From: a virus
Taxonomy: Duplodnaviria > Heunggongvirae > Uroviricota > Caudoviricetes
Strand: one strand, 5' to 3'
IMG/VR virus record: IMGVR_UViG_2721755660_000006
Coordinates: 1 to 55,157 of that record
DNA: 55,157 nucleotides
Each line of letters opens with the position of its first letter. The first letter of the stretch is position 1. This document shows, in pieces, positions 1,596-55,157 of this stretch. The translations under genes and the position numbers were made by a program. The notes under the pieces are model-generated. The model searched no databases, had not been told where the DNA came from, and saw nothing but the letters and a program-made list of their open reading frames with translations.

Positions 1596-4500
1596 TTATT
1601 TTTCGCTTCCGGTCAACTGCCGGACAAGCGCTTCAAGTTTAGTGATCCGCTCATCCATGACGGCAATGTTAGCTCGTAAGCTGGCGTTTTCTTCCTCCAG
1701 TTCGGTGACGCGGTTATCTGTTTCGCGTGCCACCTGAACAAGTAAACCAGTCACAGCCGCATAGTCAACATTAAGATAGCGCGTTTCTTCGCGTAGCTCG
1801 TTGCCGTCAATGGTCGGACCTTGTAACGCTTCACCGTAATGAGTAAACGATCCCACAGCTTCCGGAAGCGCCTCCATGACCTCCTGAGCGATAACGCCAG
1901 CGTAAGGCAGGCCGTTTTCCTTAAGCGTGTAGGTGTACCCGTTCATTTTACGGATTGCTTCAGTAGCATCGCCTATAACCTGAATGTTGTCCTTCAGGTC
2001 GCGGTCTGAAGACTGGTTTACTGTTACGCAGTTTACAGCACCATTAACCTGAAGTTGGCATGAATCATCAGTGTTTTGCTGTGCGTAAAAAAACCATGAA
2101 AGCGACGCGTTTGTGTCTGGATCTTTTATCTTGTACTCAAGTACAGTCGGACGGCTTGCTGCACCCCACAAATAAAGCTCGCCATTTCTTGCCGCTGAAT
2201 TTGCGACGGCTAAACTTACTTTTCTTGTGTAAGTATCAGCGAAAAACTCCGTAGATTTAAATTGCTGGTATCCAGTCCACCTTTGCGAAGATGCGTTAAG
2301 AGTAGCAATTTGACACCAGCCCTTATCTACTCCGGCCTCAAAACTTCTGGCATAGAATTTTGAATTACGTCCGGCGAATTGAGTTGCGTGGCTACCGCTA
2401 AATCCAACATGAAAACCACCATAAGTTAGGCTATTTTCAGGTGTATTAATGTTACCAGCAATAGGCTTAAATTTGCTTACGTTATCTGATTGTTGTGCGC
2501 TCCAGTCCTGATCTGAATATGTCGCAACCCCGTTTCCAGGCTGTATAGTTCCGTTTGATTGGATAACCTGGTAAGAATCACCATATTTATTGCGGTATGT
2601 ATCAGTGCAATAAAACCCTGTTGCACTCGATGTAAAATCAAGTAGGTTATTACTAATGCCGTAAGTGTCTAAATCAATACCATCAGAGGAATTAGTGATA
2701 CCCCATTTATAAGTCGGACTATCTGCTGTGTTAGCTGGCTTCCAGTCTGCTGTAGGTATTGTTACAGTACATCCAACCGTAACAGCGATGCGAATGGGGA
2801 AGGCATCACCGCGAACATAGATCGCGTTATGCTGATACTGCCCTTTATCAGTACCGCGAACGCAAAGTATCGCGTTTTCATTGTTTGCGTAACAGAAATA
2901 ATGACCAAATGCAGCCGCCCCCATATCTGACCAGCCACCATCACGTAACCATAAATGAATTGCGTTACAGTTAGGCTCTTCACTGCCAGATATTGACTTA
3001 GTTCTCATTGCAATTTCAACAAGGAAATCGCCGTTATAGTGTGAAGGATGGCTGACAATTACAGGGTAATATTTACCAGCTTCAGCACCAGTAGGGGCGT
3101 TGTAATCAACCCAATGCGCAATACCTGCAAACGGGATTTGCATATTGGTTTTAGTTTGTTCAAGGTTTGTAGGTACTGCAATTGCATTGACTTTCAGGTT
3201 AGGTACTTCTATTTCATCCCTTGCATAGTTGTAGCTCATTGAATTGCTTGTTTTCGTCCCGTCATATCCGTCTTTCTGAATACGCCAGTTACCACCATCA
3301 AAGACAAGGCTATAGTAAGGTGTATTTGATGGCCGATCCGTTTCGTTGAATCTGATGGTAGGATGAGCGCTTGATATTTCTACGGGATAATTAAAATTAG
3401 CTGTTAATCTTACACGCCTACCTATAAAATCACCGCTATTTAAAGAAAAGTCGCCGTCTTCGCTTAATCCTGCGTATTGGTTTTTATCTCCATTCTGTAG
3501 GTGAATTGTGGCCCATGATTTACCATCGCCACGGAATTCTGAATAAAAACGCGCTCGCGCTCTTTGTGCGCCTGATGCATCATTAAGGACGCTTTGTAAA
3601 ATACCGCCTGCCGTGGTTGCGACATCTGACGACCTAACAAGGTTAAGGTTTGTAAATTGCGGGCTATCAGTAAAATCAAGAGACTGAAATTTCTTCCATG
3701 CGGTCCACTCCCAACCAGAAGAGGAAGACTGAATGATGTGCTGGCGCATATAAAATGTACCAGTCGTGGCATTGTAAGGGAAATAAAGCTGCGTGCATCC
3801 TGCGTTACCGTTCGCATTATTTCTAATAACAAGCAATGCTCCCGCACTTGATACAGGATAACCGCGCGCAGTCGTGGCATTTGCGTTTAACCCCTGGTAA
3901 TAAAAACCGGAATACTCGCCTGTAAGCGTATTAATATCTGTGGAACCTAGATCTGATTTTTTCTCATACATAGCCTCAAGGTTAGTGCGAGCTTGTCCTG
4001 AATTAAGCCCGCCTGTACCACCATGTGCTACTTTTAACGGAACAAAAGCGCCTGCGGAATCATCATACACACCCCAATTAATAGTATCCCCTGTTCCACC
4101 ATCCCACAGAACAAATTTTTGTTTTCCTCCTGCGGCCCACAAAGCAGTCTCACTGCTACCCTGAACTAAGCGACTAACCTCATCTTTCCTTGCGTGGCGC
4201 GTCCATTGTGGGCCTGTTGATTCGCTCCACTTATAAGTGTAAGCACTTCCGGTCATCTGCCCTATAAAAAGGCCAGAAAATGCCGGGACACTGCCTAAAG
4301 TCGGGCAAATAAAGCCAGACAAATAGCGCTCACCTGAAGCAATAGAAGGCCACCCGGCAGCCCCTTCCATGATGCGCAGAAAGCCAAGATAACCTGATGG
4401 GTTTCCTGAAATATCCGGGCAATCTCTGGGGTTTGAGGAAAGACCAATGCTACTCCCGACAATACCTTGCGCCTGATTGCGATAGTTTAGCGCATCGGCT

Positions 4501-5078
4501 GCTGATTTTGCCGCATTGGTTTCACTGGTGGCAGCCGCCGTTTTGCTGTTGCTGGCTGATGTTTCGCTGGCTTTTGCTGCATCCTGTGACGCTTTCGCTG
4601 CGGTCGCTGAGTTTGCCGCTGCTGTTTTTGATGCCGCCGCCGCGTTTTTGTCTGATTCTGTTTTTTGAGCGTTGGCGGTTGATTGCGCTGTTTCTGCGCG
4701 AATGTTGGCAAGAAGCTGATCCATCTGACCATCTCCGCCGAAATCTTTCCACCACTCGACGGCTGCGGCGATCTCTGTTTCCTTGCCCTGGTAGTAACGC
4801 AGTGTTTCAGCTACGTCCTGAGCAAGACCATCAACTGAGATCGAGTCAGAAAGCAGAATGCTAAATTTTGTCCCTGCAGGAATGGCAGGATTAGCCGCAG
4901 GCGTTACTGATAATTCAGTACCGCTCTTAATTTCGGTGATAGTGAAAATCTGTACCGGATTTCCAATGGCAATGAGCGTGCACCCCACACGGATGAGAGA
5001 GAGCGGCGCGGAAAAGTTTGTTCCCGTGCCTGTAACAGTATTGCCGCTAATGGCAATTGTTCCCGTTGTATAAATCAT
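1596..5078 (-). CDS. Tail fibre protein with C-terminal intramolecular chaperone (peptidase S74-like) domain
   Basis: 1160 aa; Ala/Ser/Thr/Lys-rich repetitive N-proximal region as in lambdoid side tail fibres; C-terminal SSDRDLKDNIQVIGDATEAIRKMNGYTYT matches the conserved autoproteolytic chaperone motif. Confidence 0.8.
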   Translation of the reverse strand: MIYTTGTIAISGNTVTGTGTNFSAPLSLIRVGCTLIAIGNPVQIFTITEIKSGTELSVTPAANPAIPAGTKFSILLSDSISVDGLAQDVAETLRYYQGKETEIAAAVEWWKDFGGDGQMDQLLANIRAETAQSTANAQKTESDKNAAAASKTAAANSATAAKASQDAAKASETSASNSKTAAATSETNAAKSAADALNYRNQAQGIVGSSIGLSSNPRDCPDISGNPSGYLGFLRIMEGAAGWPSIASGERYLSGFICPTLGSVPAFSGLFIGQMTGSAYTYKWSESTGPQWTRHARKDEVSRLVQGSSETALWAAGGKQKFVLWDGGTGDTINWGVYDDSAGAFVPLKVAHGGTGGLNSGQARTNLEAMYEKKSDLGSTDINTLTGEYSGFYYQGLNANATTARGYPVSSAGALLVIRNNANGNAGCTQLYFPYNATTGTFYMRQHIIQSSSSGWEWTAWKKFQSLDFTDSPQFTNLNLVRSSDVATTAGGILQSVLNDASGAQRARARFYSEFRGDGKSWATIHLQNGDKNQYAGLSEDGDFSLNSGDFIGRRVRLTANFNYPVEISSAHPTIRFNETDRPSNTPYYSLVFDGGNWRIQKDGYDGTKTSNSMSYNYARDEIEVPNLKVNAIAVPTNLEQTKTNMQIPFAGIAHWVDYNAPTGAEAGKYYPVIVSHPSHYNGDFLVEIAMRTKSISGSEEPNCNAIHLWLRDGGWSDMGAAAFGHYFCYANNENAILCVRGTDKGQYQHNAIYVRGDAFPIRIAVTVGCTVTIPTADWKPANTADSPTYKWGITNSSDGIDLDTYGISNNLLDFTSSATGFYCTDTYRNKYGDSYQVIQSNGTIQPGNGVATYSDQDWSAQQSDNVSKFKPIAGNINTPENSLTYGGFHVGFSGSHATQFAGRNSKFYARSFEAGVDKGWCQIATLNASSQRWTGYQQFKSTEFFADTYTRKVSLAVANSAARNGELYLWGAASRPTVLEYKIKDPDTNASLSWFFYAQQNTDDSCQLQVNGAVNCVTVNQSSDRDLKDNIQVIGDATEAIRKMNGYTYTLKENGLPYAGVIAQEVMEALPEAVGSFTHYGEALQGPTIDGNELREETRYLNVDYAAVTGLLVQVARETDNRVTELEEENASLRANIAVMDERITKLEALVRQLTGSEK

Positions 5079-5255
5079 CGCAATGACTCCATTATGTTAA
5101 TTAACGGAATAATTCTACCATTTTGTGATCTGCGTTACATTTTTGACGCATACAAAATGTATTTATTGATTTATATCAATATACGAAATGTGGTTTTGTC
5201 GGATATTTAAGCCACCGGATGAACCGGACGAGCTAACAAGAATGAGGATTCAAAA

Positions 5256-5504
5256 ATGAAAAACATGTTCAAAGTGGTCTTATTCGCTGCGGCTGTAGCT
5301 CTTACTGGTTGCTCTGTTGACAAAGAGGCTGCATTGCACAACCTGCCAAATAGCGGAGTAATCCCACAAGAAATTGTCTATGATGCTGACGGTCATCTTG
5401 TATATGACACTGAAAAACTTCCGTATACTGGACAATGGTGTCATGAACTCGATCACAACATGCGCCGCATCGGTAGCCCGTCGAATTGCGTAGCTAACTA
5501 CTAA
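5256..5504 (+). CDS. Small lipoprotein moron, possibly Cor-like superinfection exclusion
   Basis: 82 aa with lipobox (LTGC) after a hydrophobic signal; sits between tail fibre and J on the opposite strand; own upstream element and terminator. Confidence 0.6.
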   Translation: MKNMFKVVLFAAAVALTGCSVDKEAALHNLPNSGVIPQEIVYDADGHLVYDTEKLPYTGQWCHELDHNMRRIGSPSNCVANY

Positions 5505-5511
5505 AAGAAAA

Positions 5512-5537
5512 CCCCGCGCGAAGCGGGGTTATTTTTT
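5512..5537. terminator. Bidirectional rho-independent terminator between lipoprotein gene and J
   Basis: CCCCGCGCGAAGCGGGG hairpin flanked by A-run and T-run, between convergent gene ends. Confidence 0.75.
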
Positions 5538-8500
5538 ATGCCCATGATCCTGAGCTTCTCGTAACAAGCGCAAGACCCGCCCTTCTTTCTGCGCCTGTGC
5601 TGGTGTTAGTGTATTCTTCCGTTATTTTTATAGTCACTTTTTGCGCCGTGATCCCTGCGACACAATGGGATACCGTAAATCCGAATTGAGGCGTTGATGC
5701 AGCCCTTACTACTGAATATGTTTTCTTATTGCCATTAATATCAATTGTTACTTTTATGGATGTTGATTGAGAATATTGATAGTAAGTCAGGTGATAAGGA
5801 ATCATCACAAAAACGGTTTTAGAAAGCGAACTCGAAGACGAATCTGTATAAGTTTTAGTAACAGAACGCGATGCACTGCCCGACTGGTCAGGGAATGATG
5901 CTTGAGGTATAAAGTTAGTTGACGCGACATCGCCTACAAAACTTGTAGCCTCTAGCGACCCTTTAAATTTACCGCTATTTGCATACACCGCCCCCCTTAC
6001 CGTTACGTTGTTAAGCTCCGCGCTACCGTTTTTATTAATCATCCAGCCAGCCGAACCGGCTTTATAGTTGGTTGACTGTATTTGCTGTGCAATTTTAGCT
6101 GTAGTGATTGCTGCATCTGCAATTTTAGCTGTCCCTATTGATGCGTCTTTAATAAACGCTTCGCGCACATACATTGCACCATTGGTGACATAGAAAGGCG
6201 TTTGATATGTGCCGTTTGCGGCGGTCATTAACACGAAGCGGTCAACAAGGAAAATACACTGCGATTGAACGTTAGTCCCGCTACCAGTCAGGCCAAGAGA
6301 CATGCCTGTTGCGTATTTTTTGCCGTTGTTGTCGGTGGCAATCTTGATTGACCATGACGCATCAACGTTACCTTTGAAGTCAGTTAACGCTTTCGATGTC
6401 GTCTCGATCGCCGTGGTGTTCCCGTTAACTGTTACTGTAAGCTGATCAATTTTGGTTGATAATGCCTCGTCCGCAGTTGTCATGGTCTGCGACCATTCCG
6501 TGATGCTTGAGTTTACAGCTTCGAAAGACGCTGAGATCTGGCTGAATTTTTCCGCGCTTGATGTTTCATGCGTAGAAAGTGCTGTTGACACTTCAGATAC
6601 TTTCGAATTAATCGTACTGGTAAGCGATGAGTTAAGACTACTTATTGCATCTGTGCGGGCCTTTGTCTCATCTGCAATAGCTTTGTCGATACGGGTCACA
6701 TTGCTTGTAACCTTGCTATCAAGCGTGCTGATGCTTGCATTCACTCCGCTGATAGCTTCGGTTCTTGCGCTCGTCTCATCTGCGATGGCTTTATCAAGAC
6801 GAGAAACACTTGCGTCTGTTTTGTTTTCAAGGCTGCTTATTGAGGCATTTACTCCGCTTATTGCTTCCGTTCTTGCCTGTGTTTCGTTTGCAATAGCTTT
6901 GTCTACTCGCGCTATCTCGCCTTTGATGTTTGAGTCCATCGTGTTCATCTCTGCGGTGATAGTTTCAAGCGCTTCTGCTGTTGCCTGTTTTTCGTCAGCA
7001 ATAACATTGTCTATACGGTCGATTTGCGCTTTAGTCTCACTGCGCCCTTTCTTGTATTGAGCGGTAAGAGTGACGCGCGTATTAGTTTGAGCAAGCGAAT
7101 TATTGATGAGCGCAAGCGATGCGTTTTGTAGGCTTGCTTTTGTCTGTGCCAGTTCGTTATCGACGTTTTCGCTTGATACCTCTAATGAGTCTATTCTTAC
7201 CTCATGTTTGCCTATTTCATCGGCGTTTTCTTCGACTTTTTTATAAAGGTCTTCAGTGTCTTTTTTAAGCGCGTCTGTGTCTGTTTTAAGGTTGTCTGTA
7301 GCTGTTTTAAGGTCGTCTGTAGCTGTTTTAAGGTCTTCAGTTGCACTTTCGATAATGTCTGCGCGGTCGCCAAGATCCTTAATGTCGCTTACCATTTCCT
7401 TGAACTGGTCTGAATTCAGCACGTCTTTAGTGACATAATCGCTGATTTCATCGAAGTTTTCTGTTGGCTGTCCTGATGCTTCTACGAAGTCAGAAACACC
7501 AAAAGCATTACGTGTGCGCACATAAACGTAATAAGTGTGGCCCGTATTCATGCCGCCGAAAGTCCACTGATACCCGCGCCCGGTAAACTGTGCCGCCGTG
7601 GTTATTTTTGCCGGATCTGTGATCTGGTTTTCCCCTGCATAGTAGAATTCGTACGCTGTATCAGTTGTTAGCGTTGTCTTGCTTATCGGGTACACTGTAG
7701 CCTGAAATACACCTGGAACCCAGTTAACGCCTACTGGCGCTGCTGGCGCACCGATAACAAGGTCAACGATACTTTCGGCACCCTTCATGCCAGTATCATT
7801 TCTTCCGCGAACCCCTAAAGAATACACGCCAGCGTCAATGCCATAAAAATCATAACTGTATTTCGTGGTTTCATAGCTTTTAACCACCGCACCATCTGCA
7901 TTATATATGCGGATCTCAAATGTCATACGATGCGTGGTTGTCTGTGTTTCCCATGTGGCGCGGCATTGAATTGTTTCCGATCCAATGTTTACCACCTTCA
8001 GATTTTCAATGTTCGGCACGCGGAAATGATTAAGCGTATCATTGTTGACCTCAAAGATTGCGCCTTCATCGACTATCGCTTGTTTGTTAGGGTCGTGCTG
8101 TGCGGCTTCGATAGTGTATACGCTGTTATTTTCTGTTTCTGCTACACTGGTGATCCGGCACAAAACGGGTTTTGCCACTTCAGTCGATACAGCAAAAACA
8201 GTGCCGTTTCTAATCCATGACGGGGCCGCCGCCAGTGTGATTTTGTTTCCGCTCACCCCGGTGATCTGATGTTTTTTAAACTTGCCATCGCTATCAAGAA
8301 GGCTGATTGTATCCCCAGCGGCAATATATTTAGCATCAACCTTGTCTACAGTTATTACTTTGCCGTTGTTCGCAACGATGCGACCGCCTAAGCGAGCGCC
8401 AGCGCGGTTATTATCGAGGATCTCGATGATATCCCCTGGCGTAAAGTGAATCGCGTCACGGGCCATTTTAAACGTGAATTTTGACGGCTCGCGTTTTGCT

Positions 8501-11085: not shown

Positions 11086-11790
11086 TTAACCTACCTTGCT
11101 GGAACCAGGGAAACAGGAAATTGGTAACGGATTTGGACGCGGGAAACGTAAACGACAACCGCTCAAGCGGTGGCTGCATCTGTCGGCTTTAGGATCGCTT
11201 GTCGGCTCGTCTTTATCGTTTGCCACTGGTCCGCCAGAGTACATACATCCGTCGCCTCTGTATTGCCACTGGCAAACGTCAGCAAGGATGGTGCGCCCAG
11301 GGATAACGGCCTTGTCAGCATCAATTGGGGTTGACAGTTCATATTGCACCTGATCCGCTGTTTCCTCGCTCATGGCCTCCACGACGTAAAAAGATACAGC
11401 CTCAATAGATGGATCTGCATCTGGATTGCCGTTTGGGAAGTTAACGGCGTCCAGGTATTTTACTTCCACCTGGCGGCGCGTAACCTTCATTCCTCGCAGG
11501 TCGTTGAAGTCGTTATTCATCCCTGTGATTAGCCCGCCGATATTGGCTACAACCATTTGAGGCCGCGAATAAACGCCCTCGTTTTTCATTTCGAAGCCAG
11601 TAGCCTCGATCGGGTAGCTGTTGTAAGTTAATCCCTTCCAGATAACCGGGCCGTAATAGCCATTCGCGCCGGAATGGAAGCGGATAACCTCGCCACCCAG
11701 GGGCGACAAGTCCAGTTCGAACAAGTCAATCACCGCTCCCACACCAGCGTCCACGGAATCAATAATCATCTCTGTAGGTATATTGCGCAT
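11086..11790 (-). CDS. Minor tail protein (lambda gpL-like)
   Basis: Aligns by eye with lambda L (FLDAVNF-NGN, DRCS-RLSGC); start refined to MRNIP, preceded by AGGTGA Shine-Dalgarno. Confidence 0.85.
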   Translation of the reverse strand: MRNIPTEMIIDSVDAGVGAVIDLFELDLSPLGGEVIRFHSGANGYYGPVIWKGLTYNSYPIEATGFEMKNEGVYSRPQMVVANIGGLITGMNNDFNDLRGMKVTRRQVEVKYLDAVNFPNGNPDADPSIEAVSFYVVEAMSEETADQVQYELSTPIDADKAVIPGRTILADVCQWQYRGDGCMYSGGPVANDKDEPTSDPKADRCSHRLSGCRLRFPRPNPLPISCFPGSSKVG

Positions 11791-11919
11791 TTTCTCACCT
11801 TCTGATTTTGTGATCTGCGTCACGCCAAATCATACCAAAATGGATTGATCGCGGTTTATACAATATGTATATTTTACTCAAACGGAAGCACAGTTAACAA
11901 AATGGCGCGGAGGTGTGAG

Positions 11920-12075
11920 ATGGCTGATAAGGTGTGGAGGTTGAAGGTATTTCTGACAGACGGAAGGGAAATGACTGTTGCCCTGTATAAAGATGAAGGC
12001 GATGCACTTACTGACGCGCTCTTACTCGCTGAAGACGAAAGAGTTTTGGGATACAGACTCGAACCTGTCAAATGA
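11920..12075 (+). CDS. Hypothetical small protein (moron island A, gene 1)
   Basis: 51-codon ORF with GGAGGTG Shine-Dalgarno; plus strand, antisense to the tail genes. Confidence 0.5.
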   Translation: MADKVWRLKVFLTDGREMTVALYKDEGDALTDALLLAEDERVLGYRLEPVK

Positions 12076-12087
12076 TGGTTTAACAAA

Positions 12088-12438
12088 ATGCAAAAATATA
12101 GTTTAGAAATATGGACTGATAAATGTGAATGGGAGCGCATGGGCCTGTTCGACACATACGTCGCAGCGCGTGATGAAGGTCGTGAGTTACTTCGCTGTTG
12201 GTCTAACGCTCGTGATTTTGATATTACTCCGGTGCAAGTGCCGGATAAGGTGGAAGAGATGAACCCGAAAGATATTAACTTTAACGTCAATGTTGAATTT
12301 GCAGACTCTATGGATCAGTCTTGCCCTGGTGAAATACACGCAAAAGGTTTCCCGGCAGACGATCCGCAAGCAAAACGCGAATACGAAAAAGCTGCGAAAG
12401 ACTTCTGCATAGATAACCTGGGCGCATTCGATAAATAA
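12088..12438 (+). CDS. Hypothetical protein (moron island A, gene 2)
   Basis: 116-aa ORF closely following gene 1 on the plus strand. Confidence 0.55.
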   Translation: MQKYSLEIWTDKCEWERMGLFDTYVAARDEGRELLRCWSNARDFDITPVQVPDKVEEMNPKDINFNVNVEFADSMDQSCPGEIHAKGFPADDPQAKREYEKAAKDFCIDNLGAFDK

Positions 12439-12447
12439 GGCGGCAAC

Positions 12448-12696
12448 ATGGGGCGGCGCAATCACGGTGATTATGTGTACACGTTGAAACAGGCCGCCCG
12501 CCTCATCGGTTATCATGAGCACGAATTTATTGATTTGCTGATTGAGCGCGGGATACTGTACCAGGTCTGTTTAACGCTGTACCCGAAAGCGAAATACCTA
12601 CAGGAAAAGTTATTCATCATCATGACGGATGAAAACCAGGTGAATCATTCATTCGTCACTGATAAGGGATTGACATACCTGAAGGGGGCGTTATGA
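12448..12696 (+). CDS. Hypothetical protein, possible HTH DNA-binding (moron island A, gene 3)
   Basis: 82-aa ORF 10 bp after gene 2; helix-turn-helix-like segment (TLKQAARLIGYHEHEFIDLLIERG); followed by a terminator. Confidence 0.5.
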   Translation: MGRRNHGDYVYTLKQAARLIGYHEHEFIDLLIERGILYQVCLTLYPKAKYLQEKLFIIMTDENQVNHSFVTDKGLTYLKGAL

Positions 12697-12767: not shown

Positions 12768-12790
12768 TATAAACCCCGCTTCGCGCGGGG
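12768..12790. terminator. Bidirectional terminator hairpin between island A and a minus-strand small gene
   Basis: CCCCGCTTCGCGCGGGG hairpin between convergent ORF ends. Confidence 0.55.
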
Positions 12791-12796
12791 TCGTGT

Positions 12797-13359: not shown

Positions 13360-13515
13360 AAGTTACATTTTGTATATATATTTACGCGCTTCTACGCGAA
13401 AAATGAGATCTTCATCACAATGATTATAGCTAGTTTACAAAATGGCTTCACATAGTACGAAACAAGATGTATACATAAAGCAAGAAGAAAGCAGTACCAA
13501 CGAAGGAGGCCCAAA

Positions 13516-13670
13516 ATGAAACGCTATGTAGTGGTAATGCTAAACAACGCATTCGAACAAGTGGAAATAGCAATCGTTAAGGGTTTCGACGACGCATTCA
13601 AATACGGTCAATTCATGATGAATGCAAAAGAAGATGAATACCGGGACTTCTTCCTGAAGGCACTTAACTA
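13516..13670 (+). CDS. Hypothetical small protein (moron island B, gene 1)
   Basis: 51-codon ORF (MKRYVVVMLNNAFEQ...DFFLKALN) with strong AAGGAGG Shine-Dalgarno; not in the supplied track (under 60 aa). Confidence 0.5.
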
Positions 13671-13688
13671 AGGATGATGGGGTGAGTT

Positions 13689-13943
13689 ATGAAACTGGTA
13701 GCGATTGACAAAAATCTGAAAGCACAGAAAAACGCGCCGGGACATGTAGTCAAAAAAGCAAAGGAACTTTTGAACGCGTTTTTAAACAAGAATGCGTCAC
13801 CCAAAAAATTGAAAGACGGTTACGGCTACGCCTTCCGCGCCAATTTAGACTGGCGAGTCTATAGCCAGGATCTGAAAGAGTGGGTGATTGTTGAACACCA
13901 TAAATTCAATGAATTGTCTGGCGTTCGCGGTTGCCATAAGTGA
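13689..13943 (+). CDS. Hypothetical protein, possibly RelE/ParE-like toxin fold (moron island B, gene 2)
   Basis: 84 aa; C-terminal KKLKDGYGYAFRANLDWRVYSQDLKEWVIVEHHK resembles the RelE/YafQ-type pattern by eye; unverified. Confidence 0.5.
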   Translation: MKLVAIDKNLKAQKNAPGHVVKKAKELLNAFLNKNASPKKLKDGYGYAFRANLDWRVYSQDLKEWVIVEHHKFNELSGVRGCHK

Positions 13944-14060
13944 GGTGGTATGGAGGACGATAAATTCACCTGGAGGGAGATCTGGAATATTTGGTTGGTG
14001 ATGTTTTCTCGCAGCTATATAGCCAGAAACGGAAGATTGTAATTTGCGGAGGAAAATAAA

Positions 14061-14237
14061 ATGAAAAACCAGGCAAATAAAAGCAATGTAAAACGTATAG
14101 CCTGGATCGTAAAATGGATGGATAGTAAAGGAGACACATATACTGAACCATTTTTCAAACATACTGATGCAGTATTTGCAAGAAGTGTAAGAGGCGGGAA
14201 AATTGAAAGAGGATATACAAGTTTTGAGAATAACTAA
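14061..14237 (+). CDS. Hypothetical small protein (moron island B, gene 3)
   Basis: 58-codon ORF with GGAGGA Shine-Dalgarno, followed by a terminator. Confidence 0.45.
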   Translation: MKNQANKSNVKRIAWIVKWMDSKGDTYTEPFFKHTDAVFARSVRGGKIERGYTSFENN

Positions 14238-14242
14238 AAGAT

Positions 14243-14266
14243 AACCCCGGCATTGTACCGGGGTTT
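14243..14266. terminator. Terminator hairpin ending moron island B
   Basis: CCCCGGCATTGTACCGGGG hairpin followed by a T-rich run; the tape measure gene begins beyond it. Confidence 0.6.
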
Positions 14267-16618: not shown

Positions 16619-16775
16619 GATTTAACCTCATACAAAATGTGATCTATGCCTCTATTTTATACAAAATGGCTTTACTGTAACGACTCCATTTTGTATAAAG
16701 AGGCTAAAGGAAAGGGATAGAGCAAAGGGATTTAAAAGGCCGGATTAACCGGGGGAAGCGAAGGAGGATAAGAAA

Positions 16776-16859
16776 ATGAAAAACGTAAACTACCGCCCCA
16801 ATGAACATGAACGCTATGCGGACTTCATCGAGGAAATGTTAAAAGCACTTAAAAAATAA
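16776..16859 (+). CDS. Hypothetical mini-protein (moron island C, 27 aa)
   Basis: GAAGGAGGA Shine-Dalgarno then ATG; sequence MKNVNYRPNEHERYADFIEEMLKALKK; C-terminus resembles island B gene 1. Confidence 0.35.
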   Translation: MKNVNYRPNEHERYADFIEEMLKALKK

Positions 16860-16927
16860 ACAATATGCGTGTATAACTAAGTTAAATGAAGCATTTAGCA
16901 AATTAGAATAAGCGGTAGGAGTTGATT

Positions 16928-17341
16928 ATGAAACGGTTAGCAAAAATGGCACTTACTGTGATTGCCGCACTCGCATTTAACGCGAACGCTAACGAGGCCA
17001 TAAGCATTAACTGTGAAGAAGTGGCAAACCATGTAGCCGCATATCACGACATGATCAAAAAAGAACCTGCCGCGCCAGCAATTCTTTTTAAGGCAATTGA
17101 TAAAAAATTTGAAGGTAAACCAGTTTATGCTCGTTGGTTTAATTATGGCCTTGTAAACGAGGCCGCTGTAGGCGTAGTCTTTGAAAATAATAGCGAAATA
17201 AAAAACAGGATAGCAAACGAGTGTAAGGCAAATAAAGTTGCTTTCGCGGAAAGAATTTTTAATGAAGGCGGCGCGGGTGCAAAAAATCACGCAATTGTAG
17301 ATTTGGGTAACGGTTTTATTGATATTGTTAGAATCAAATAA
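16928..17341 (+). CDS. Secreted/periplasmic hypothetical protein (moron island C)
   Basis: 137 aa with cleavable signal peptide (MKRLAKMALTVIAALAFNANA); TAGGAG Shine-Dalgarno; terminator follows. Confidence 0.65.
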   Translation: MKRLAKMALTVIAALAFNANANEAISINCEEVANHVAAYHDMIKKEPAAPAILFKAIDKKFEGKPVYARWFNYGLVNEAAVGVVFENNSEIKNRIANECKANKVAFAERIFNEGGAGAKNHAIVDLGNGFIDIVRIK

Positions 17342-17347: not shown

Positions 17348-17372
17348 CGCCCGGATCTACCGGGCTTTTTCT
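17348..17372 (+). terminator. Rho-independent terminator after the secreted-protein gene
   Basis: CCCGGATCTACCGGG hairpin plus CTTTTTCTT. Confidence 0.65.
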
Positions 17373-24060: not shown

Positions 24061-25444
24061 TATCGCGGCGGGAGGTATTCGCCTGATTATTTTCTTCACC
24101 TTCATCATCGTTTTCCTCGTCTTCCAGTTCTACTTCACTAGCTGGGCCATCGTATCCGGCAGCTTCGCGGATCTCGTCACCGCTAAATATTTCCTCACCA
24201 GTAGCAAGACAAGCCTGATTGATTTGCGCCATTTTGTGTGCCGCTTCCAGTAGTTCGGCTTTTGTCATGGCGTTAAGGTCATCCCATAAAACTGATACAT
24301 CGACTGGCATACTGATAAGGCGGAGATCTGCCATCTTGCGGAATAGTTCCTCAAGCTCGCCTCCAATTTCCTCGCGGCGGGTCATACAGCGATTATTGAA
24401 GTAGCGTAGGTCTTCAGTTGATGCGCGTTCGCCCTGCTGATTCCCAACCAGGATACGCGTCGGGATGTCGATACCAGCGGCGGCAGTTTGCAGGTTGACG
24501 TCATAGGTTGCAGATGGATCGGCTACGGCAGTTACCAGCGGGCTAACACTTGCCCCTTGTAATGCCATCATCACATCATTACCCCTATTCATTTCTGCTG
24601 CTGCCTCGTTGAATTTCTCGCGTAGCTCTGTAACGTCGCAATCGTATGTTGCAGCCAGGGAACGGAAATCAATCTCTTTATCGAACGAGATAGCCAGTTG
24701 ACGAGCGGCATTTTTCAGGAATGACTCACCGCTACCGCCTTCCACTTTCTCCAGCGAAACGAAAGCGTTATAGGACGGCTCAAGGAAAGCGATAGCATCA
24801 TCAGAATAATCACCAAATATAAAGATCCTGTCTGGATGAATCTTTCTTGCTATGGTTTTACTGTTGATCCGCTCCTTGTATTCCCACCATGTCGGAAGGC
24901 CATAGTTTTCTTTATCCTGGTTTTCTTCGAAGTCCTTCGGCGTAAGAGCGCCAGCCCACACAGGGGTGAATTTGGCAATGCCTACGCCTTTTGTTACTGG
25001 CTGATCCCACGGCTGGTTATCTCTGACATGAATTAACAGGCCCGCATAACGACCGATGAGGCGGCGGCGATCGCATTCAGCTATGACGCGCCAGAAACGA
25101 TTATCAAATTGCTTTTTAATTTCTCTTTCCCACGGCGTTTCCGTTTCTGCTTTCTCGTCTTCCGTACCTTCAATCAGCGTTGGCCTGGTGCGCCAGCACG
25201 TAGTAACGATCTTCTCAATAGCACCGTGAGCGATACCACCGCGACGATACAGCTTGTAAAGATCTTCATAGGTGATTTCTTCTTTGAATCCGTATTCACT
25301 CCACGCAGCGTCACGTTTTGCATCAATACCCATTGAGAATGGGTTAGCGGCTGCATAGCGGGCAAAGGCCGCCTGGCGTTGTGACAAGGCAGCATTAACC
25401 GCCAATTCTAAATTGGATGGCATAATGTTTACTCCTGAATACAT
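24050..25444 (-). CDS. Portal protein
   Basis: 464 aa with acidic C-terminal tail, immediately downstream of the large terminase. Confidence 0.75.
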   Translation of the reverse strand: MYSGVNIMPSNLELAVNAALSQRQAAFARYAAANPFSMGIDAKRDAAWSEYGFKEEITYEDLYKLYRRGGIAHGAIEKIVTTCWRTRPTLIEGTEDEKAETETPWEREIKKQFDNRFWRVIAECDRRRLIGRYAGLLIHVRDNQPWDQPVTKGVGIAKFTPVWAGALTPKDFEENQDKENYGLPTWWEYKERINSKTIARKIHPDRIFIFGDYSDDAIAFLEPSYNAFVSLEKVEGGSGESFLKNAARQLAISFDKEIDFRSLAATYDCDVTELREKFNEAAAEMNRGNDVMMALQGASVSPLVTAVADPSATYDVNLQTAAAGIDIPTRILVGNQQGERASTEDLRYFNNRCMTRREEIGGELEELFRKMADLRLISMPVDVSVLWDDLNAMTKAELLEAAHKMAQINQACLATGEEIFSGDEIREAAGYDGPASEVELEDEENDDEGEENNQANTSRRDNAI

Positions 25445-25501
25445 GTTTACGCGTTGCTACGCGAAAAATAGAAAAATTCGTGAGGGGTTGTGAGGCAGAT
25501 T

Positions 25502-32040: not shown

Positions 32041-32136
32041 TTCTTGTCTCCCCTTCCGTCTTTCCTTGACTTATATATAACAAAATGGCACTGCCTGAAC
32101 AATGCCATTTTGTAAACTTTGCGGGGTAGATCACGT

Positions 32137-35996: not shown

Positions 35997-36186
35997 TGTC
36001 GTTACTCCGCCCGTAAATATGAACCGGCTCAATTGGCACGGCTGGCAATTCACCTTCGTTTAATGCGCTCGCCATACCCAATACCAAACGCGCTTCAGCA
36101 CCAGTGACTTTCTTACACCATGCACCGCCTGTTTTATCTTCAAATAAGATAACGGCAAACTGATCGTTTATTTCCAGCTTATCCAT
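35983..36186 (-). CDS. Hypothetical protein
   Basis: 67-aa ORF. Confidence 0.4.
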   Translation of the reverse strand: MDKLEINDQFAVILFEDKTGGAWCKKVTGAEARLVLGMASALNEGELPAVPIEPVHIYGRSNDNENT

Positions 36187-36914
36187 TATTCACCCCGCGT
36201 CACTCGTTTAATTTCGTTGTCAGCCCGCGCCTCTTCTTTGAACAATTCAGCAATGGCGTCTTCATAGAAAGCCCGGTATTTCTTCCACCATGTTGATCGG
36301 CTTACCGGGAAAACAAGCTGATTAACCGCCTGCCGGACAAGATCTACAGGGAAACGCGAGTACCCACGCCCGCCGCAGTGCTGGCATGTTTTGAACACTG
36401 GCATTTCCGCCGCCTCGCTGGCTGCTTTATCCGGTACTTCGCCACGGCCCTTGCACCGCTGGCAATGGTTTTTAACGTAGCCTTTGCCGCCGCACCGTGC
36501 GCAAATTGTTGATGTGTATTTGCAATATGGATTTGGTAAATGCCCGTGACCGCCGCACTTAGGGCAAACTTTTTCGGTCGCTGCACTCTGGCAGTAATCC
36601 CGAAACGCGAAAACGGCAACAAGAATAATAAGTCCATTGCGCTGATCCTCGTTTAACTCCATCACGTATTCGTAATCTTTTGCCATCGATTTTAAGCGGT
36701 CTATAAGCAACGACACGGCTTTATTTTTTTCAGCTTGCGATAGCTCCATCTTTCCCAAAAAAGCGCTATATCCAAGCTCTACGCGCGATTGCGCCATACC
36801 CGCAGCGGTTAGCGCATCCGTCGTATTAAGAGCGCCCGGGGACGTGCCCCGGCTTTCGTCAGATAATCGCGGTGATTTAGGAAAGTGGAATTTTAGAATG
36901 GATTCTAAATTCAT
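36186..36914 (-). CDS. DnaJ-type zinc-finger protein; candidate late-gene antiterminator (Q-like)
   Basis: 242 aa with four CxxCxG(K/R/H)G repeats (CPKCGGHGH, CARCGGKGY, CQRCKGRGE, CQHCGGRGY); located after the NinG/RusA nin-like genes. Confidence 0.4.
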   Translation of the reverse strand: MNLESILKFHFPKSPRLSDESRGTSPGALNTTDALTAAGMAQSRVELGYSAFLGKMELSQAEKNKAVSLLIDRLKSMAKDYEYVMELNEDQRNGLIILVAVFAFRDYCQSAATEKVCPKCGGHGHLPNPYCKYTSTICARCGGKGYVKNHCQRCKGRGEVPDKAASEAAEMPVFKTCQHCGGRGYSRFPVDLVRQAVNQLVFPVSRSTWWKKYRAFYEDAIAELFKEEARADNEIKRVTRGE

Positions 36915-38293: not shown

Positions 38294-38452
38294 AATGCTC
38301 TCTCCTTTTCAGGTGATTTCTACGCATTTCAGCGCTGCCGGATTTTTAAAGAGCATTTTGTTTGCTTGAAGTATACAAAATGGATACGTGCTAACAAGGT
38401 GTAAAGCGCCATTATGTGACATTCATCACACAATGACGCCATTTTGTAAACT

Positions 38453-45379: not shown

Positions 45380-45409
45380 AATGTCATCTCCGGATGTTTA
45401 CATTTTGTA

Positions 45410-45661: not shown

Positions 45662-46200
45662 TTTGCTATCACATTTACCATATATAATTGTAACGCTCAT
45701 AATCTGATCTCCGTATATCCTTGATGATACTTAATAAAAAATCATCTTCGTTAATTGCCGCACTTCCAGCGGCTGACCAGATTGTTAATGAGCGGCTTAA
45801 CATCTTTCAACTAATCCCGCAATCATCGCCGTTCCCGGCGTGACCTTGCTCACTCCAAGCAAGCTGACTCGTCGCCTTGCGTGCGGTTTCGTGGGGGATG
45901 TAACGCTTTAAACACCCCATGCGCCTTGTTATCAGTGCCGCTTTCGGTCCCCAATCGGGGAGTTACTCCACGGTTGACAAGGTGTTAAGCCTGATTTTTA
46001 AAGTGCCAGGAAGTTGCTTTTGTTACCTGCGCCCTTCCTTTGACTCGCAATATACGCCCCGTAAAACATCGAGTCAATCCATTTTGTATACTTTTTTAAA
46101 ATATTTTATATGTCATTGATATTTAAATAATAAATAACGTTTTCTGTTTACGTTTTGGTGTTTTCCAGGCAAAGAAAAGCCGCCATTCGGCGGCTAATGT
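45662..46200 (-). promoter_or_regulatory. cI-to-N intergenic region (candidate pL/nutL-type region)
   Basis: About 540-bp non-coding gap between the repressor and the N-like gene; inferred from lambdoid organisation only. Confidence 0.3.
46170..46198 (-). terminator. Rho-independent terminator after the cI-like gene
   Basis: GCCGCCGAATGGCGGC hairpin followed by TTTTCTTTG on the minus strand. Confidence 0.65.
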
Positions 46201-46869: not shown

Positions 46870-46980
46870 AAAGTTTGATGCAAGTCACAAAACGTGTATT
46901 TTAAGCCTTGATCTTAAAATTCCATTTTGTAAACTTGCAGACAAGGTAAGGCCATACTTGCAAAGACGCAAGGAAAAAGA
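46870..46980. promoter_or_regulatory. Operator-like palindromes in the repressor/cro-position intergenic region
   Basis: Repeated half-site ACTTGC/GCAAGT: GCAAGTCAC near 46873, ACTTGCAGACAAGG near 46930, ACTTGCAAAGACGCAAGG near 46959. Confidence 0.4.
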
Positions 46981-48866: not shown

Positions 48867-49985
48867 ATGTCACAAAGAAAGATCAGCGATGAACAGTTAA
48901 TCGCTGAACATAATAACGGTCTGACGTATAAACAGATCGCAGAAAAATATGGCATGGCAAAACGCAACGTCGAACGCCTGGGCGCACGGTTGGCGAAACG
49001 CGGTTTAATATCCACGCGCCGCGCACCGGGTTTTGGCGTCAATGCTGAGTCATTGCTCGTCGATAAGGATGGCAATGTGATTATGCGCTGGATTAAAACA
49101 GCCCGTGACCGCGATGAAATGGAAATGCTAATGCAATCTGCTTGTGACGCCTTCACGGAAGAAATACCCCGCGCGGAGGCCGTGCCAGTGCCGGAAATTG
49201 ATTTTCAAAAAAGCCTGGCCCTTTATCCGGTATTCGATCTGCATATCGGGGCGCTTGCTCATAAAGCTGAATGCGGTGAGAGCTACGACACCGGGATCGC
49301 TGAACGCGTGCTAAATGACTTCTTCGACTACGCGGTAGGCGCTGCGCCAATGTCTGAAAAGGCTGTTTTGCTTCTCGGCGGTGATGTGCTTCACACTGAC
49401 GGCCTGTTACCAGTGACGCCATCAAGTAATCACGTTTTAGATTGTGATTCACGCTACGCAAAACTGGTTTATGTGGCGATCCGGTCGGTCCGGCGTGCGG
49501 TCGGGAAGATGTTACTAAATCATAAGGATGTCGAGATCCAGGTATTATCCGGTAATCACGACCAATCAGGTATGATCTGGCTACGTGCTGCGCTGGCGGC
49601 TTTTTACGAAGATGAACCGCGTGTGACGGTTGATGTGTCACCTGCTATCGTCCATCACACACAGTACGGCAAAACATTTCTTGCTTACCACCACGGGCAC
49701 ACTATCAAAAAGCCAGAAAATTTACTTTCTGCCTGCGTTTCTGACTGGCGGGAGGATTTCGGCAAGTCGTCGTCTGTTTACGCTCATTGTGGACACTGGC
49801 ATCACCAACGGCTGATTGAATCATCGTTGGGCGTTGTTGAGTACCACGGCACGTTAGCTGGCAAAGACGCTTATTCAACGAATGGCGGCTGGCGGTCGCG
49901 GCGGCTGGCTGCGGTAATAATTTACAGTCCTGATCATGGGGAAATCGGGCGCTTTGTTTATTACCCTGAATATTCCATTTTGTAA
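48867..49985 (+). CDS. Calcineurin-like metallophosphoesterase with N-terminal HTH-like domain (Mre11/SbcD-like motifs)
   Basis: 372 aa; motifs DLHIG, GGDVLHTDG, GNHD, HHGH, GHWHH; N-terminus LTYKQIAEKYGMAKRNVERL. Confidence 0.65.
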   Translation: MSQRKISDEQLIAEHNNGLTYKQIAEKYGMAKRNVERLGARLAKRGLISTRRAPGFGVNAESLLVDKDGNVIMRWIKTARDRDEMEMLMQSACDAFTEEIPRAEAVPVPEIDFQKSLALYPVFDLHIGALAHKAECGESYDTGIAERVLNDFFDYAVGAAPMSEKAVLLLGGDVLHTDGLLPVTPSSNHVLDCDSRYAKLVYVAIRSVRRAVGKMLLNHKDVEIQVLSGNHDQSGMIWLRAALAAFYEDEPRVTVDVSPAIVHHTQYGKTFLAYHHGHTIKKPENLLSACVSDWREDFGKSSSVYAHCGHWHHQRLIESSLGVVEYHGTLAGKDAYSTNGGWRSRRLAAVIIYSPDHGEIGRFVYYPEYSIL

Positions 49986-51503: not shown

Positions 51504-52052
51504 ATGAGCATTGAACTTGAAGCAAAAATTATCAATATCCTTGAACTTGATGGCATCGCAACAATGCACCAGCTACGCCAGAAAACCGGATTATCAGCGG
51601 AATACGACGAAGCCGGATGCTTGCCGGAAACAGTTAAACACCTGATCGACACTAATCTGGTTGAGCGGGTGTATACATATTTTGGCCCGCGCCGCCGCTT
51701 GCTGGGCTATCGAATTAAATATTTATACGAACAACGACGCGAGCGTGTAGCCGCGTTATTTACTGACTACAACGTTAGAAAGCGAATGAGAGATATTAGC
51801 GCGGAAACTGGCATTCCGTGGAATTACCTTTCGCGCACGCTGCGTTTAATGGTGCTGGATGAAACGCTTTGCATAGATACCAATAAACACGGCCTTAATT
51901 TTTACTCACTGTTTAAACCTGGTCGCTTTGGTCACGCTAATGATCTCGCGTTTGATTTTGACAGCCGCCTGAACGAATACCGGAAAAATAACGGCCTGCT
52001 ACCGGATAAACCAGTATTTGAGATCGAAAAACTCAACGGGGAACGGGGTTAG
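51504..52052 (+). CDS. Hypothetical protein
   Basis: 182-aa ORF downstream of dnaB-like gene. Confidence 0.5.
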   Translation: MSIELEAKIINILELDGIATMHQLRQKTGLSAEYDEAGCLPETVKHLIDTNLVERVYTYFGPRRRLLGYRIKYLYEQRRERVAALFTDYNVRKRMRDISAETGIPWNYLSRTLRLMVLDETLCIDTNKHGLNFYSLFKPGRFGHANDLAFDFDSRLNEYRKNNGLLPDKPVFEIEKLNGERG

Positions 52053-53746: not shown

Positions 53747-53964
53747 TGGATAAGATCGGGACAATACTTATTAACCGTGAGCAAGTGCAAAAAATGTTAG
53801 GCGGGCTTAGCAAGTCCGCCTTTTTTAAGCTCGTTAAAAAATGGAAAGAAGCGGGAACTCCTTTCCCTGAACCTGTAAAGGGGATGCCAGCATTAAAGCG
53901 CGGGGGATCTCTTTACCGTTATCAGGACGTTATTTCATTTTGTAAATCTATGGGCTTCATGTAA
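53746..53964 (+). CDS. AlpA/Xis-like small DNA-binding protein (candidate excisionase)
   Basis: 72 aa; LINREQVQKMLGGLSKSAFFKLVKKWKEAGTPFPEPVK pattern; adjacent to integrase, 3-prime ends overlap convergently. Confidence 0.45.
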   Translation: MDKIGTILINREQVQKMLGGLSKSAFFKLVKKWKEAGTPFPEPVKGMPALKRGGSLYRYQDVISFCKSMGFM

Positions 53965-55121
53965 TAATCAGCCAGTTTATTCATCGCCTCGATTTGCTCC
54001 CTCACATAATCATACTGATCATATATAGCCATCATCCCCGCCAGTTTATGACCTAAAACCTTTTCGGCTACATGCGGCGCAACGCCAAGCGCTGAAAGGT
54101 TTGTCCTTACAGTGCGGCGCAAGTCGTGACACGACCACGGCTCGCCGCCCATCCTTAGCATCAAATCCCTTGCGGCTGTTTTCGGCACGCTCCTGTCTAC
54201 CGCTTCATCCCTTCCAGAAAGCACGGGAACGAAGATAAAATTAAAGCCGTGCAAATCCATAGCTTCACGCAATAAACCTACGCTAACGGCGGATAAACCG
54301 CGTTTAAACTCGTTTCTGTTCTTACTCAATGCACCCGGCACGGTCCACACACAGTTATCAAGATCGAAATGCTCGCGCCTTGCGTTTGTTAGTTCGCTTG
54401 TTCTGCATCCGGTGAATATAATCAGCTTCATCAATATCTGATTTAGCCGCGCCATTTTTGAACTGTCTATAATGCTGATTAGATGGTGAATCTCTTGTAT
54501 TGATAAGACGCGTTTTCTTTGCGCCGGGTTTTTGCCTACGTCTTTCACGCGTAGTAATGATATGTCGTCACGCTCCACGCGGCGGCGGCGCATGGCATAT
54601 TTTATCACCGCCTTCATCCTGTTTAAGACTATCCCGGCCTGAACCGGCGCGCCACCATTAGCTACCTTTCTAAAAATCCCCTCCCACATTATGGAGTCCA
54701 TATCATCGACGATATAGCTACCGCATGGTCTGACAATGTGCTTACTTAGCATCGCATCGACTTGCTTATAGTTGACCATGTTTCTTGCCTGCGGTGATTC
54801 CATGTACTCCCTAACAATATCTTCAATCGTTGCCCGTGTCGTAACGCGTGACAAGTTCATTCTTTTTACGATCGATGGATCTCGTCCTGAGTTTAAGACT
54901 TCCTTATGCTCCGCCACCGCCGCGCGGGCTTCTTTGAGTGTTATTTCTCCGTATGTGCCGATCTTCATCCGTCGAGGCTTGCCGTTGAATCGGTAGCGAT
55001 ACTGGAAAGATATAACTCCGCGCGGGCTTATCCTGGCAGACAATCCGCCCGCGTCCGGGACTTCTTCCGGGCCGTCATATGGCTTGCCGTGGATGTTTCG
55101 TAATTTGGTATCTGTAAGCAT
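53922..55121 (-). CDS. int: Tyrosine integrase (P4-type family)
   Basis: About 399 aa from MLTDTKLRNI; C-terminal catalytic region with HDLRRT and LGH motifs; attR core immediately upstream of the start. Confidence 0.9.
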   Translation of the reverse strand: MLTDTKLRNIHGKPYDGPEEVPDAGGLSARISPRGVISFQYRYRFNGKPRRMKIGTYGEITLKEARAAVAEHKEVLNSGRDPSIVKRMNLSRVTTRATIEDIVREYMESPQARNMVNYKQVDAMLSKHIVRPCGSYIVDDMDSIMWEGIFRKVANGGAPVQAGIVLNRMKAVIKYAMRRRRVERDDISLLRVKDVGKNPAQRKRVLSIQEIHHLISIIDSSKMARLNQILMKLIIFTGCRTSELTNARREHFDLDNCVWTVPGALSKNRNEFKRGLSAVSVGLLREAMDLHGFNFIFVPVLSGRDEAVDRSVPKTAARDLMLRMGGEPWSCHDLRRTVRTNLSALGVAPHVAEKVLGHKLAGMMAIYDQYDYVREQIEAMNKLADYYMKPIDLQNEITS

Positions 55122-55123
55122 AA

Positions 55124-55145
55124 TTTGGTCACTATTTGGTACACA
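55124..55145. repeat. attR core (second copy of the 22-bp direct repeat)
   Basis: Identical to 1517..1538; located 3 bp upstream of the likely integrase start codon (MLTDTKL at 55121). Confidence 0.8.
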
Positions 55146-55157
55146 CATTTTACGCAT

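Follow-up and report, generated by a model that had tools for sequence, protein, structure and literature searches.

Class I activation by the cyclic AMP receptor protein (CRP) is a textbook mechanism; at lac P1 the protein is centred at -61.5, and 26.5 bases separate the centre of its site from the start of the -35 hexamer. The moron genes of lambdoid phages (bor and lom of lambda; HK97) represent a second well-described arrangement, in which plus-strand units with a promoter block, a terminator and variable cargo stand between minus-strand tail genes. Here we describe an element, ATTTTGTGATCTGCGTYAC, that occurs twice in front of plus-strand cargo genes in a 55,157-nucleotide stretch of DNA (IMG/VR record IMGVR_UViG_2721755660_000006, positions 1 to 55,157; hereafter the window). 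The window is a prophage of the mEpimmI group, the mEp021-like, Nus-dependent, non-lambdoid temperate coliphages (PMC11893012), inserted in abgT. We think it probable that the shared element is a class I-type activator site whose most likely ligand is cAMP-CRP of the host, and the CRP input looks like a general feature of the promoters of mEpimmI phages rather than a switch private to their cargo.

The 19-mer ATTTTGTGATCTGCGTYAC has exact matches at 5120-5138 and 11805-11823, where 18 of 19 bases are identical between the copies; shuffled sequences are expected to give 0.02 matches at up to three mismatches. Copy 1 is intergenic between the start of the tail-fibre gene (ATG at 5078, minus strand) and the lipoprotein gene Lpp (5256-5504, plus strand), and copy 2 between the start of the minor tail gene L (ATG at 11790, minus strand) and a plus-strand unit that we call island A (11920-12696), with a product that carries a KilAC (antirepressor-type) domain. 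The first-pass annotation of this DNA had pointed to a shared, CRP-like element at these two places. The element is real, with coordinates one base away from those first given and an identity of 18/19 rather than 17/18, and both copies indeed stand upstream of plus-strand cargo units, each with its own terminator. In about 43 related phage contigs the element is kept at both positions. Each copy forms part of a CRP-type dyad: the Lpp site (5120-5139) contains the 16-mer TGTGATCTGCGTTACA at 5124-5139, centred at 5131.5, and site A (11805-11824) contains TGTGATCTGCGTCACG at 11809-11824, centred at 11816.5. Both match nine of the ten core positions of TGTGA-N6-TCACA.

A count of this crude consensus at up to two mismatches gave no enrichment in the window (27 matches against 21.3 expected), and we therefore used in its place a symmetric 16-position matrix built from 68 in vivo ChIP-seq sites of enterotoxigenic Escherichia coli (ETEC) H10407 (Haycocks et al., 2015; PMC4287617, Table 1). 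The training sites have a median score of 13.1 bits, and our cut-off for a high score was 13.5 bits. Seven sites in the window reach it, against 0.47 expected, and five of these lie in the 5.9 kb outside genes of at least 150 bases, our definition of intergenic DNA, where 0.043 would be expected; neither count was reached in any of 300 shuffles. Scoring with a CRP weight matrix, the check proposed with the first-pass annotation, thus shows strong enrichment, and by this measure both copies of the element are good dyads. The highest score is that of site A (11809; 17.6 bits, the 93rd percentile of real sites), followed by matches at 38415 in the internal early region (17.2 bits, with all ten core positions matched at 38415-38430), at 13404 upstream of island B (15.5 bits), at 46874 in the rep and early rightward region (15.1 bits), at 49380 in coding sequence (14.2 bits), at 5124 upstream of Lpp (13.8 bits, about the training median) and at 45839 in the leader of the leftward early promoter PL (13.7 bits). 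A proposed third copy at 16638, upstream of island C, proved weaker: TGTGATCT is present at 16638-16645, but the conserved part is just a TGTGAT half-site, and the match scores 8.3 bits (9th percentile). Within the lineage, high-scoring sites have a density of 0.84 per 10 kb, compared with 0.16 in tail-gene relatives outside it.

To follow these sites among relatives, related loci were fetched with tail protein L (80 loci, of which 43 belong to close relatives), the repressor (46) and NinG (79). At site A, TGTGAT and TCACG are present in 43 of 43 close relatives while the five bases between them take at least 12 forms, and the scores remain at 13.6-18.7 bits. Among the 34 unique sequences, one of ten half-site columns is variable, compared with five of six spacer columns (Fisher p = 0.008) and 41 of the 92 intergenic columns outside the site. 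The early CRP core at 38430-38415 (minus strand; TGTGATGAATGTCACA, a perfect core) has 18 different 16-mers in 45 relative loci, all with GTGAT and TCACA and scoring 16.7-20.8 bits. Constrained half-sites around a free spacer are thus found at site A and at 38415; at the Lpp, B and C sites one half is constrained. The Lpp site scores 6.9-13.8 bits in relatives, with TTACA or TTGCA as its right half; site B (TGAGATCTTCATCACA, 13404-13419) has a nearly invariant TCACA half beside a variable left half and spacer; and site C (TGTGATCTATGCCTCT, 16638-16653) has an invariant TGTGAT and a poor right half (4.4-15.5 bits). The element is not present at loci outside the lineage, in phages whose L protein is just about 71% identical. 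The promoter block of island A was found in 23 of 5,426 complete E. coli genomes.

One could take the repeat for what a duplication or recombination event left behind, a mosaic joint for cargo swaps that has no regulatory role, and this pattern bears on that possibility. Both copies of ATTTTGTGATCTGCGTYAC share the spacer TCTGCG in this phage, and alignments show that the cargo 3' of the conserved promoter blocks varies among relatives, as a joint of this kind would have it. However, half-sites that stay fixed while their spacers diverge run opposite to what is expected from a neutrally decaying duplication, and the enrichment includes high-scoring sites that have neither spacer nor flank in common with the repeat; we regard such an origin as very unlikely. 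The position of the two copies on the minus strand, 13-40 bases 5' of the start codons of L and the tail-fibre gene, could also be read as that of an RNA element, a small GUGA...UCAC hairpin within the late-mRNA 5' leader of these genes. Here the folding of the minus-strand RNA does not surpass that of shuffled controls (z = +0.37 and -0.44), the stem positions do not co-vary but are invariant, Rfam gave no match for the element, and similar dyads occur also where no start codon follows. An action in RNA is, in our judgement, extremely improbable.

Class I activation, the explanation that we favour, makes demands on the distance between the sites and the promoters that they would serve. The predicted sigma-70 promoter of island A (11845-11873, plus strand) consists of TTGATC, a 17-base spacer and TATATT, with 9 of 12 matches; both hexamers are conserved in the 34 unique relatives and the spacer is partly variable. 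From the centre of site A to the start of this -35 there are 28.5 bases, or 27.5 in mEp021-type sequences. The candidate promoter of island B (13436-13475, plus strand) combines a lineage-specific motif, TACAAAATGG, at 13436-13445 with TTCACA (13447-13452), a 17-base spacer and TATACA (13470-13475), and that of island C (16660-16699, plus strand) combines the same motif at 16660-16669 with TTTACT (16671-16676), a 17-base spacer and TATAAA (16694-16699), and is faced by a second motif copy on the minus strand (16686-16695). The corresponding distances are 35.5 bases for island B and 25.5 bases for island C. With the two early promoters considered below, the centre of the site is 25.5-28.5 bases from the -35 at four promoters and 35.5 at the fifth. 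If starts are placed by the predicted -10 hexamers, the CRP-type centres would fall at about -59.5 to -63.5, -70.5 and -82.5; the positions that we took as activating are -41.5, -61.5, -71.5, -82.5 and -92.5. On this model, the plus-strand starts would be near 11880 (island A), 13482 (island B), 16706 (island C) and about 5214 (Lpp), and those used on induction near 38363 (minus strand) and 46942 (plus strand). At least six CRP-type sites stand some 60-80 bases upstream of predicted promoters in this prophage, and gene control through them is plausible, if of a fairly ordinary kind.

The likeness to class I promoters such as lac P1 extends to the 16-base TGTGA-N6-TCACA dyad placed 25.5-28.5 bases upstream of the -35, with island B one helical turn farther, and to the A/T-rich DNA that separates the CRP site from the -35, the seat of the C-terminal domain of the alpha subunit. 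The arrangement differs from lac P1 in that the sites are carried by a prophage, at six or more predicted promoters of a single 54-kb element, and in that a precisely conserved 10-base motif takes the place of generic A/T-rich DNA at -47 to -38. The sequence of the element, its enrichment, its conservation pattern and the terminators are observed directly; we infer the promoter positions, the starts, CRP as the binder and the sign of its effect. cAMP-CRP would bind about 60-64 bases upstream of the cargo transcription starts at island A and at the weak copy of island C, about 70 bases upstream at island B and about 82 bases upstream at Lpp. By the class I route it would then contact the alpha C-terminal domain of RNA polymerase on the A-rich DNA between its site and the -35. 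The cargo, namely the exclusion lipoprotein, the KilAC/antirepressor-like protein and the ParE-like toxin, would be expressed more in the absence of glucose, and the same design would be reused at the early rightward promoter and at the internal early promoter before the third nut site.

Several observations weigh against this interpretation. The positions at -60, -70 and -82 depend on predicted hexamers and on starts inferred from them, and site A is 1-2 bases farther from its -35 than is the CRP site in lac. The -10 hexamers of islands B and C (TATACA and TATAAA) do not have the T that is usual at position 6, which makes them weak predictions, and no sigma-70 promoter with at least 8 of 12 matches was found for Lpp or island C. 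Among relatives, the median score is just 9.7 bits at site B and 12.4 bits at site C, and the Lpp site, besides its TTACA or TTGCA right half, has a left half of TGTAA instead of TGTGA in three unique sequences. Part of the conservation reflects shared ancestry, since the relatives are close (85-100% identity). Finally, the sites lie beside or over candidate promoters of the minus strand, such as TGGTAGAAT at 5120-5112 and TATAAT at 13428-13423.

The last point could mean that CRP binds but mainly represses or roadblocks the overlapping leftward promoters of the tail genes. The extended -10 TGGTAGAAT would put the Lpp site near -26; the TATAAT, which is perfect and conserved, would put the island B site at about +5; and GTTACA-16-TAAAAT (16681-16654, minus strand), with the candidate leftward -10 TAAAAT at 16659-16654 beside site C, would put the island C site at about +1. 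However, these leftward candidates have -35 hexamers that are either poor or unconserved, and transcription of the late genes should come from the late operon that depends on Q (36186-36914). Site A, the strongest of the four, directly adjoins the Shine-Dalgarno sequence of gene L, and this leaves no space there for a leftward promoter, which argues against repression as the main role. We consider that role unlikely, although repression of leftward promoters could be an additional effect. As to the genes concerned, the TGGTAGAAT extended -10 precedes the tail-fibre gene and the perfect TATAAT precedes the minor tail gene M.

Activation by cAMP-CRP, as we favour it, would not be limited to the cargo. 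The first-pass annotation had proposed a regulatory input shared by the cargo genes and independent of the lytic programme. The first half of this proposal stands in part: CRP-type sites do precede the cargo units, while the right half of the Lpp site is weak and variable and sites B and C are weaker. The second half is not supported, since equal or better sites precede predicted early promoters (46874-46889 and 38415-38430) and the input is thus not confined to cargo genes. The earlier reading is in this sense partly supported, being largely sound as a hypothesis and incomplete on cargo specificity and on the quality of the sites. The early site at 46874-46889 (TTTGATGCAAGTCACA) is centred 26.5 bases from the predicted early rightward promoter, which consists of TTGATC (46908-46913), a 16-base spacer and TAAACT (46930-46935) on the plus strand, and the reversed motif CCATTTTGTA adjoins its -10. 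The internal early control region (38448-38370, minus strand) contains a motif copy (38448-38439), the CRP core, TTGTTA (38397-38392), a 16-base spacer and TATACT (38375-38370), with 25.5 bases between the centre of the 38415 site and the start of TTGTTA. Alignments support both CRP-associated early promoters well. Directly after TTGTTA-16-TATACT, at about 38360-38330 on the minus strand, there is a boxA/boxB-like nut sequence (GCTCTTTAAAAATCC, then CGCTGAAATGCG), in the region where the third nut site of the group has been placed (PMC11893012); this arrangement suggests that the extra nut site of mEpimmI phages may have its own CRP-dependent promoter. In the annotation of mEp021 the CRP palindrome of the 38415 region is labelled a terminator (TERM_4).

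The remaining early control elements can be placed around these sites. The candidate leftward early promoter PL, a strong one (TTGACT-17-TATATT; 46077-46049, minus strand), lies downstream of the rep terminator. The repressor, Rep, is a homologue of lambda CI, and all full-length relatives share one repressor type, with Rep identities of 91-100%. A MarR-like protein of 182 residues is encoded at 51504-52052. No cro-like gene is evident between the predicted rightward promoter and the first replication gene (47155). ACTTGCA/TGCAAGT repeats at 46879, 46933 and 46956 may be repressor operators; TTGACTCG...CGAGTCAA repeats are also seen in the PL and PR regions.

At Lpp, the CRP-type site is not the only recognizable regulatory sequence. 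The E. coli ansB promoter is co-activated, by FNR at -41.5 and by CRP bound farther upstream. The Lpp promoter region contains, at 5166-5179 (centre 5172.5), TTGATTTATATCAA, the sole perfect match to the FNR consensus in the window. As at ansB-type promoters, a perfect TTGAT-N4-ATCAA is combined with a CRP-type site whose centre lies 41 bases farther upstream, on the same helical face. The box is present in 30 of 33 relatives and perfect in 22, with conserved half-sites and a variable 4-base spacer, and 18 of the 33 loci have GATATT or GATACT at the right distance from it. If GATATT (5202-5207, plus strand) is the -10 of Lpp, FNR at -41.5 would place the CRP-type site at about -82.5. Unlike that of ansB, the Lpp layout is a prediction with a modest -10; 10 of the 33 relatives have no good -10 in this position, and mEp021 does not have the box. 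The FNR box suggests that Lpp is under anaerobic control. Two further sequences flank the CRP-type site. One is a palindromic copy of the lineage motif, TACAAAATGTA (5151-5161), which lies between this site and the FNR-like box. The other, TGTTAATTAA (5096-5105), has the tail-fibre Shine-Dalgarno sequence on one side and the CRP-type site on the other and is invariant in all relatives; it resembles what we take to be one half of an ArcA site.

The TACAAAATGG motif accompanies nearly all of the CRP-associated promoters and has a consensus of approximately (a)gt(T/A)TACAAAATGG, or about agtWTACAAAATGG. Its 9-mer TACAAAATG has 14 exact copies, starting at 5151, 13366, 13436, 16631, 16660, 16687, 32106, 38374, 38440, 45401, 46080, 46923, 49976 and 53936; it and the overlapping ACAAAATGG are the two most over-represented 9-mers of the window, and at up to one mismatch TACAAAATG has 45 matches against 22.6 expected. 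There are 3-8 copies of the motif per 10 kb in all mEpimmI loci and almost none in more distant tail relatives. The copies are nearly always intergenic and are conserved at matching positions in mEp021. A literature search for the motif returned nothing relevant.

The motif occurs in three settings. In forward orientation it stands one base 5' of the -35 at PL and at the candidate promoters of islands B and C, and a variant with a one-base insertion, TACCAAAATGG (11833-11843, plus strand), lies directly upstream of the -35 of island A. In reverse, CCATTTTG plus TAWACT makes up the -10 region of the two CRP-associated early promoters, and the longest word common to both early control regions is TCCATTTTGTA. 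In the third setting the motif forms a palindrome, ATACA-N3-TGTAT, at 5151, 11859, 13364, 41996 and 45399; palindromic TACA-N3-TGTA (ATACA-WWW-TGTAT) occurs at 7 sites, 5 of them intergenic, against about 0.8 expected. The copy at 11859-11869, TACAATATGTA (TATACAATATGTATA), lies over the spacer and -10 of the island A promoter, and the one at 45399-45409, which separates the N-like gene from the small gene that comes next, hardly varies among 43 relatives although its flanks do. Another motif copy, AACAAAATGG (11896-11905), is found in the predicted 5' leader of island A, where conserved sequence gives way to variable cargo. At 32079-32135 two copies face each other across a 16-base gap (ACAAAATGGCA...TGCCATTTTGT), with the same spacing as at 16660/16686, and 21 bases upstream on the minus strand there is a GTGATCTA half-site. 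This region, among the small genes between Q and the lysis genes, may be another promoter.

The proximal subsite of the UP element, reportedly defined by Estrem and co-workers in 1999 as AAAAAARNR at -46 to -38, offers one way to read the forward copies. TACAAAATGG takes up -47 to -38 at PL and at the candidate promoters of islands B and C, where it matches seven of nine proximal-subsite positions in register, and the island A variant, one base longer, is in the same place. The motif differs from an UP element in that its non-A positions (C and TGG) are conserved as strictly as its A-tract, and in that it is also found reversed in -10 regions, as a palindrome, and between genes with no obvious promoter. 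It fits a site for a sequence-specific protein better than a generic contact for the alpha subunit, and its presence in both orientations, at activating as well as occluding positions, suggests a binding protein of this kind, perhaps the repressor. Direct readings of the motif as a promoter element were rejected: taken as a -10 in its own orientation (CAAAAT), TACAAAATG has a -35-like hexamer just at island B (ATCACA-18-CAAAAT) and fails at A and C; TTTACA taken as a -35 has no -10 16-18 bases downstream; and a sigma-54 reading of the TGGC that follows the motif finds no GC element at the right spacing. Set beside what we take to be the sites of host regulators, among them OmpR, CpxR, KdpE, EvgA, NrdR, TyrR, Fis, IHF, LexA, DnaA, NarL and ArcA, the motif shows partial resemblance at most. 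The presumed OmpR C1 site shares TTTACATTTTG with the reverse strand at 45399, and the sites assumed for EvgA (TACA-N2-TGTA) and NrdR (CACAATAT) are partly alike; these are leads only, as none agrees in spacing and flanks alike.

The close company of motif and dyad raises the question of whether CRP is the ligand at all. The 5' part of the shared element, CATTTTGTG, is a reversed one-mismatch copy of the lineage motif, fused to the CRP half-site (TCACAAAATGG), and a fusion of motif and half-site is also present at 38409-38419. The dyads might therefore be bound by a phage-encoded regulator with CRP-like specificity, or the functional unit might be a composite TCACA(A/T)AATGG in which dyad and motif are merged. 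The CRP-type sites are specific to the lineage and always found together with TACAAAATGG, the TCACA half runs into (A/T)AATG(G) in three cases (5118-5128, 38409-38419 and, in most relatives, site A), and several phage proteins are without a family assignment. Against this, the 20 phage proteins scanned with Pfam and PHROGs include neither a CRP/FNR-family protein nor any other candidate dimeric regulator of this specificity, and in their fit to the CRP matrix the sites equal genuine chromosomal ones, down to the preferred extension TGTGAT....ATCACA. The spacing of 21-32 bases between dyad and motif argues for independent binders. We hold a phage-encoded or composite recognition to be improbable.

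A broader scheme, which we offer as a tentative and rather doubtful extension of CRP binding, joins the two sequences in another way. mEpimmI phages might build nearly all of their promoters, those of the cargo as well as the early rightward one and the one before the extra nut site, from a portable cassette, made of a host CRP site at about -60 and a lineage element of 10-13 bases (TACAAAATGG or ATACA-N3-TGTAT); a phage protein, possibly the CI-like repressor, would activate from the element at -42 and repress from it over the -10. Repressor and host carbon status would then jointly set cargo expression, and the cassette would serve as the joint for cargo swaps.

The organization of the prophage places the CRP-type sites in context. 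The gene for an AbgT-family transporter (1-1446) is host abgT and forms the left flank; abgT is the integration site given for the mEpimmI group (PMC11893012). At the right end, a 411-residue gene (53922-55157) matches in position the annotated integrase of mEp021, and these two ends identify the window as an integrated prophage with an abgT-type attachment site. The 4-kb tail segment at 4000-8000 shares 97.5% identity with Escherichia phage MagusPhagus and 84-88% with mEp013, mEp554, mEp044, mEp010, mEp515 and mEp021. Most genes between 1596 and 46848 are on the minus strand, and the tail genes are broken up by four plus-strand islands: Lpp, island A, island B (13516-14237; the ParE-like toxin) and island C (16776-17341). 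A terminator-like hairpin stands 3' of each on the plus strand, at 5510-5530 (Lpp), 12773-12791 (island A), 14243-14265 (island B) and 17349-17365 (island C), and all but that of island A are bidirectional. The four units thus lie between conserved phage genes with terminators of their own (gene map, hairpins) and carry variable cargo among otherwise similar phages (alignments), both as expected of morons; a promoter of their own is convincing for island A (9 of 12 matches, conserved) and weak for B, C and Lpp. They share with the lambdoid morons the arrangement of plus-strand units, promoter block, terminator and variable cargo among minus-strand tail genes, and differ in that their carrier is a non-lambdoid mEpimmI phage and in that the four units share one CRP-type promoter design.

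Two repeat structures were found elsewhere in the window. The host-specificity gene J contains four 108-base repeats and five 21-base tandem repeats (6641-7024, 7225-7350), in agreement with the repeat region reported for J proteins of the mEpimmI group (PMC11893012). A 34-base repeat, 85% identical between its copies at 13371-13404 and 25436-25469, consists of TACGCG-N4-TACGCG followed by AAAAAT; one copy is found upstream of gene M, the other between the genes for the large terminase and the portal protein. Its late-mRNA strand can be read as a short GC stem closed by a purine-rich loop (CGCG UAGAAG CGCG), possibly an RNA element of the boxB type.

The paper that describes the group does not mention CRP (0 occurrences) and does not describe operators or promoters (PMC11893012), and our literature search found nothing on CRP control of prophage cargo genes in general. 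The features presented here provide a first candidate promoter map for mEpimmI phages, and the conserved CRP-type promoter directly upstream suggests a reason for the third nut site. For the lipoprotein, the CRP-type site has a further implication. LamB is itself CRP-dependent. Lipoproteins of the mEpimmI group exclude superinfecting phage when expressed from a plasmid, Lpp from a Ptac plasmid, and those of this type exclude phages that use LamB (PMC11893012); the exclusion factor may thus be co-regulated with the receptor that it guards, which would give the control a simple rationale. If our interpretation is correct, a gut-prevalent group of prophages would tie its cargo, an exclusion lipoprotein together with antirepressor-like and toxin-like genes, to the carbon-starvation signal of the host, and two of its early promoters would probably be tied to the same signal.

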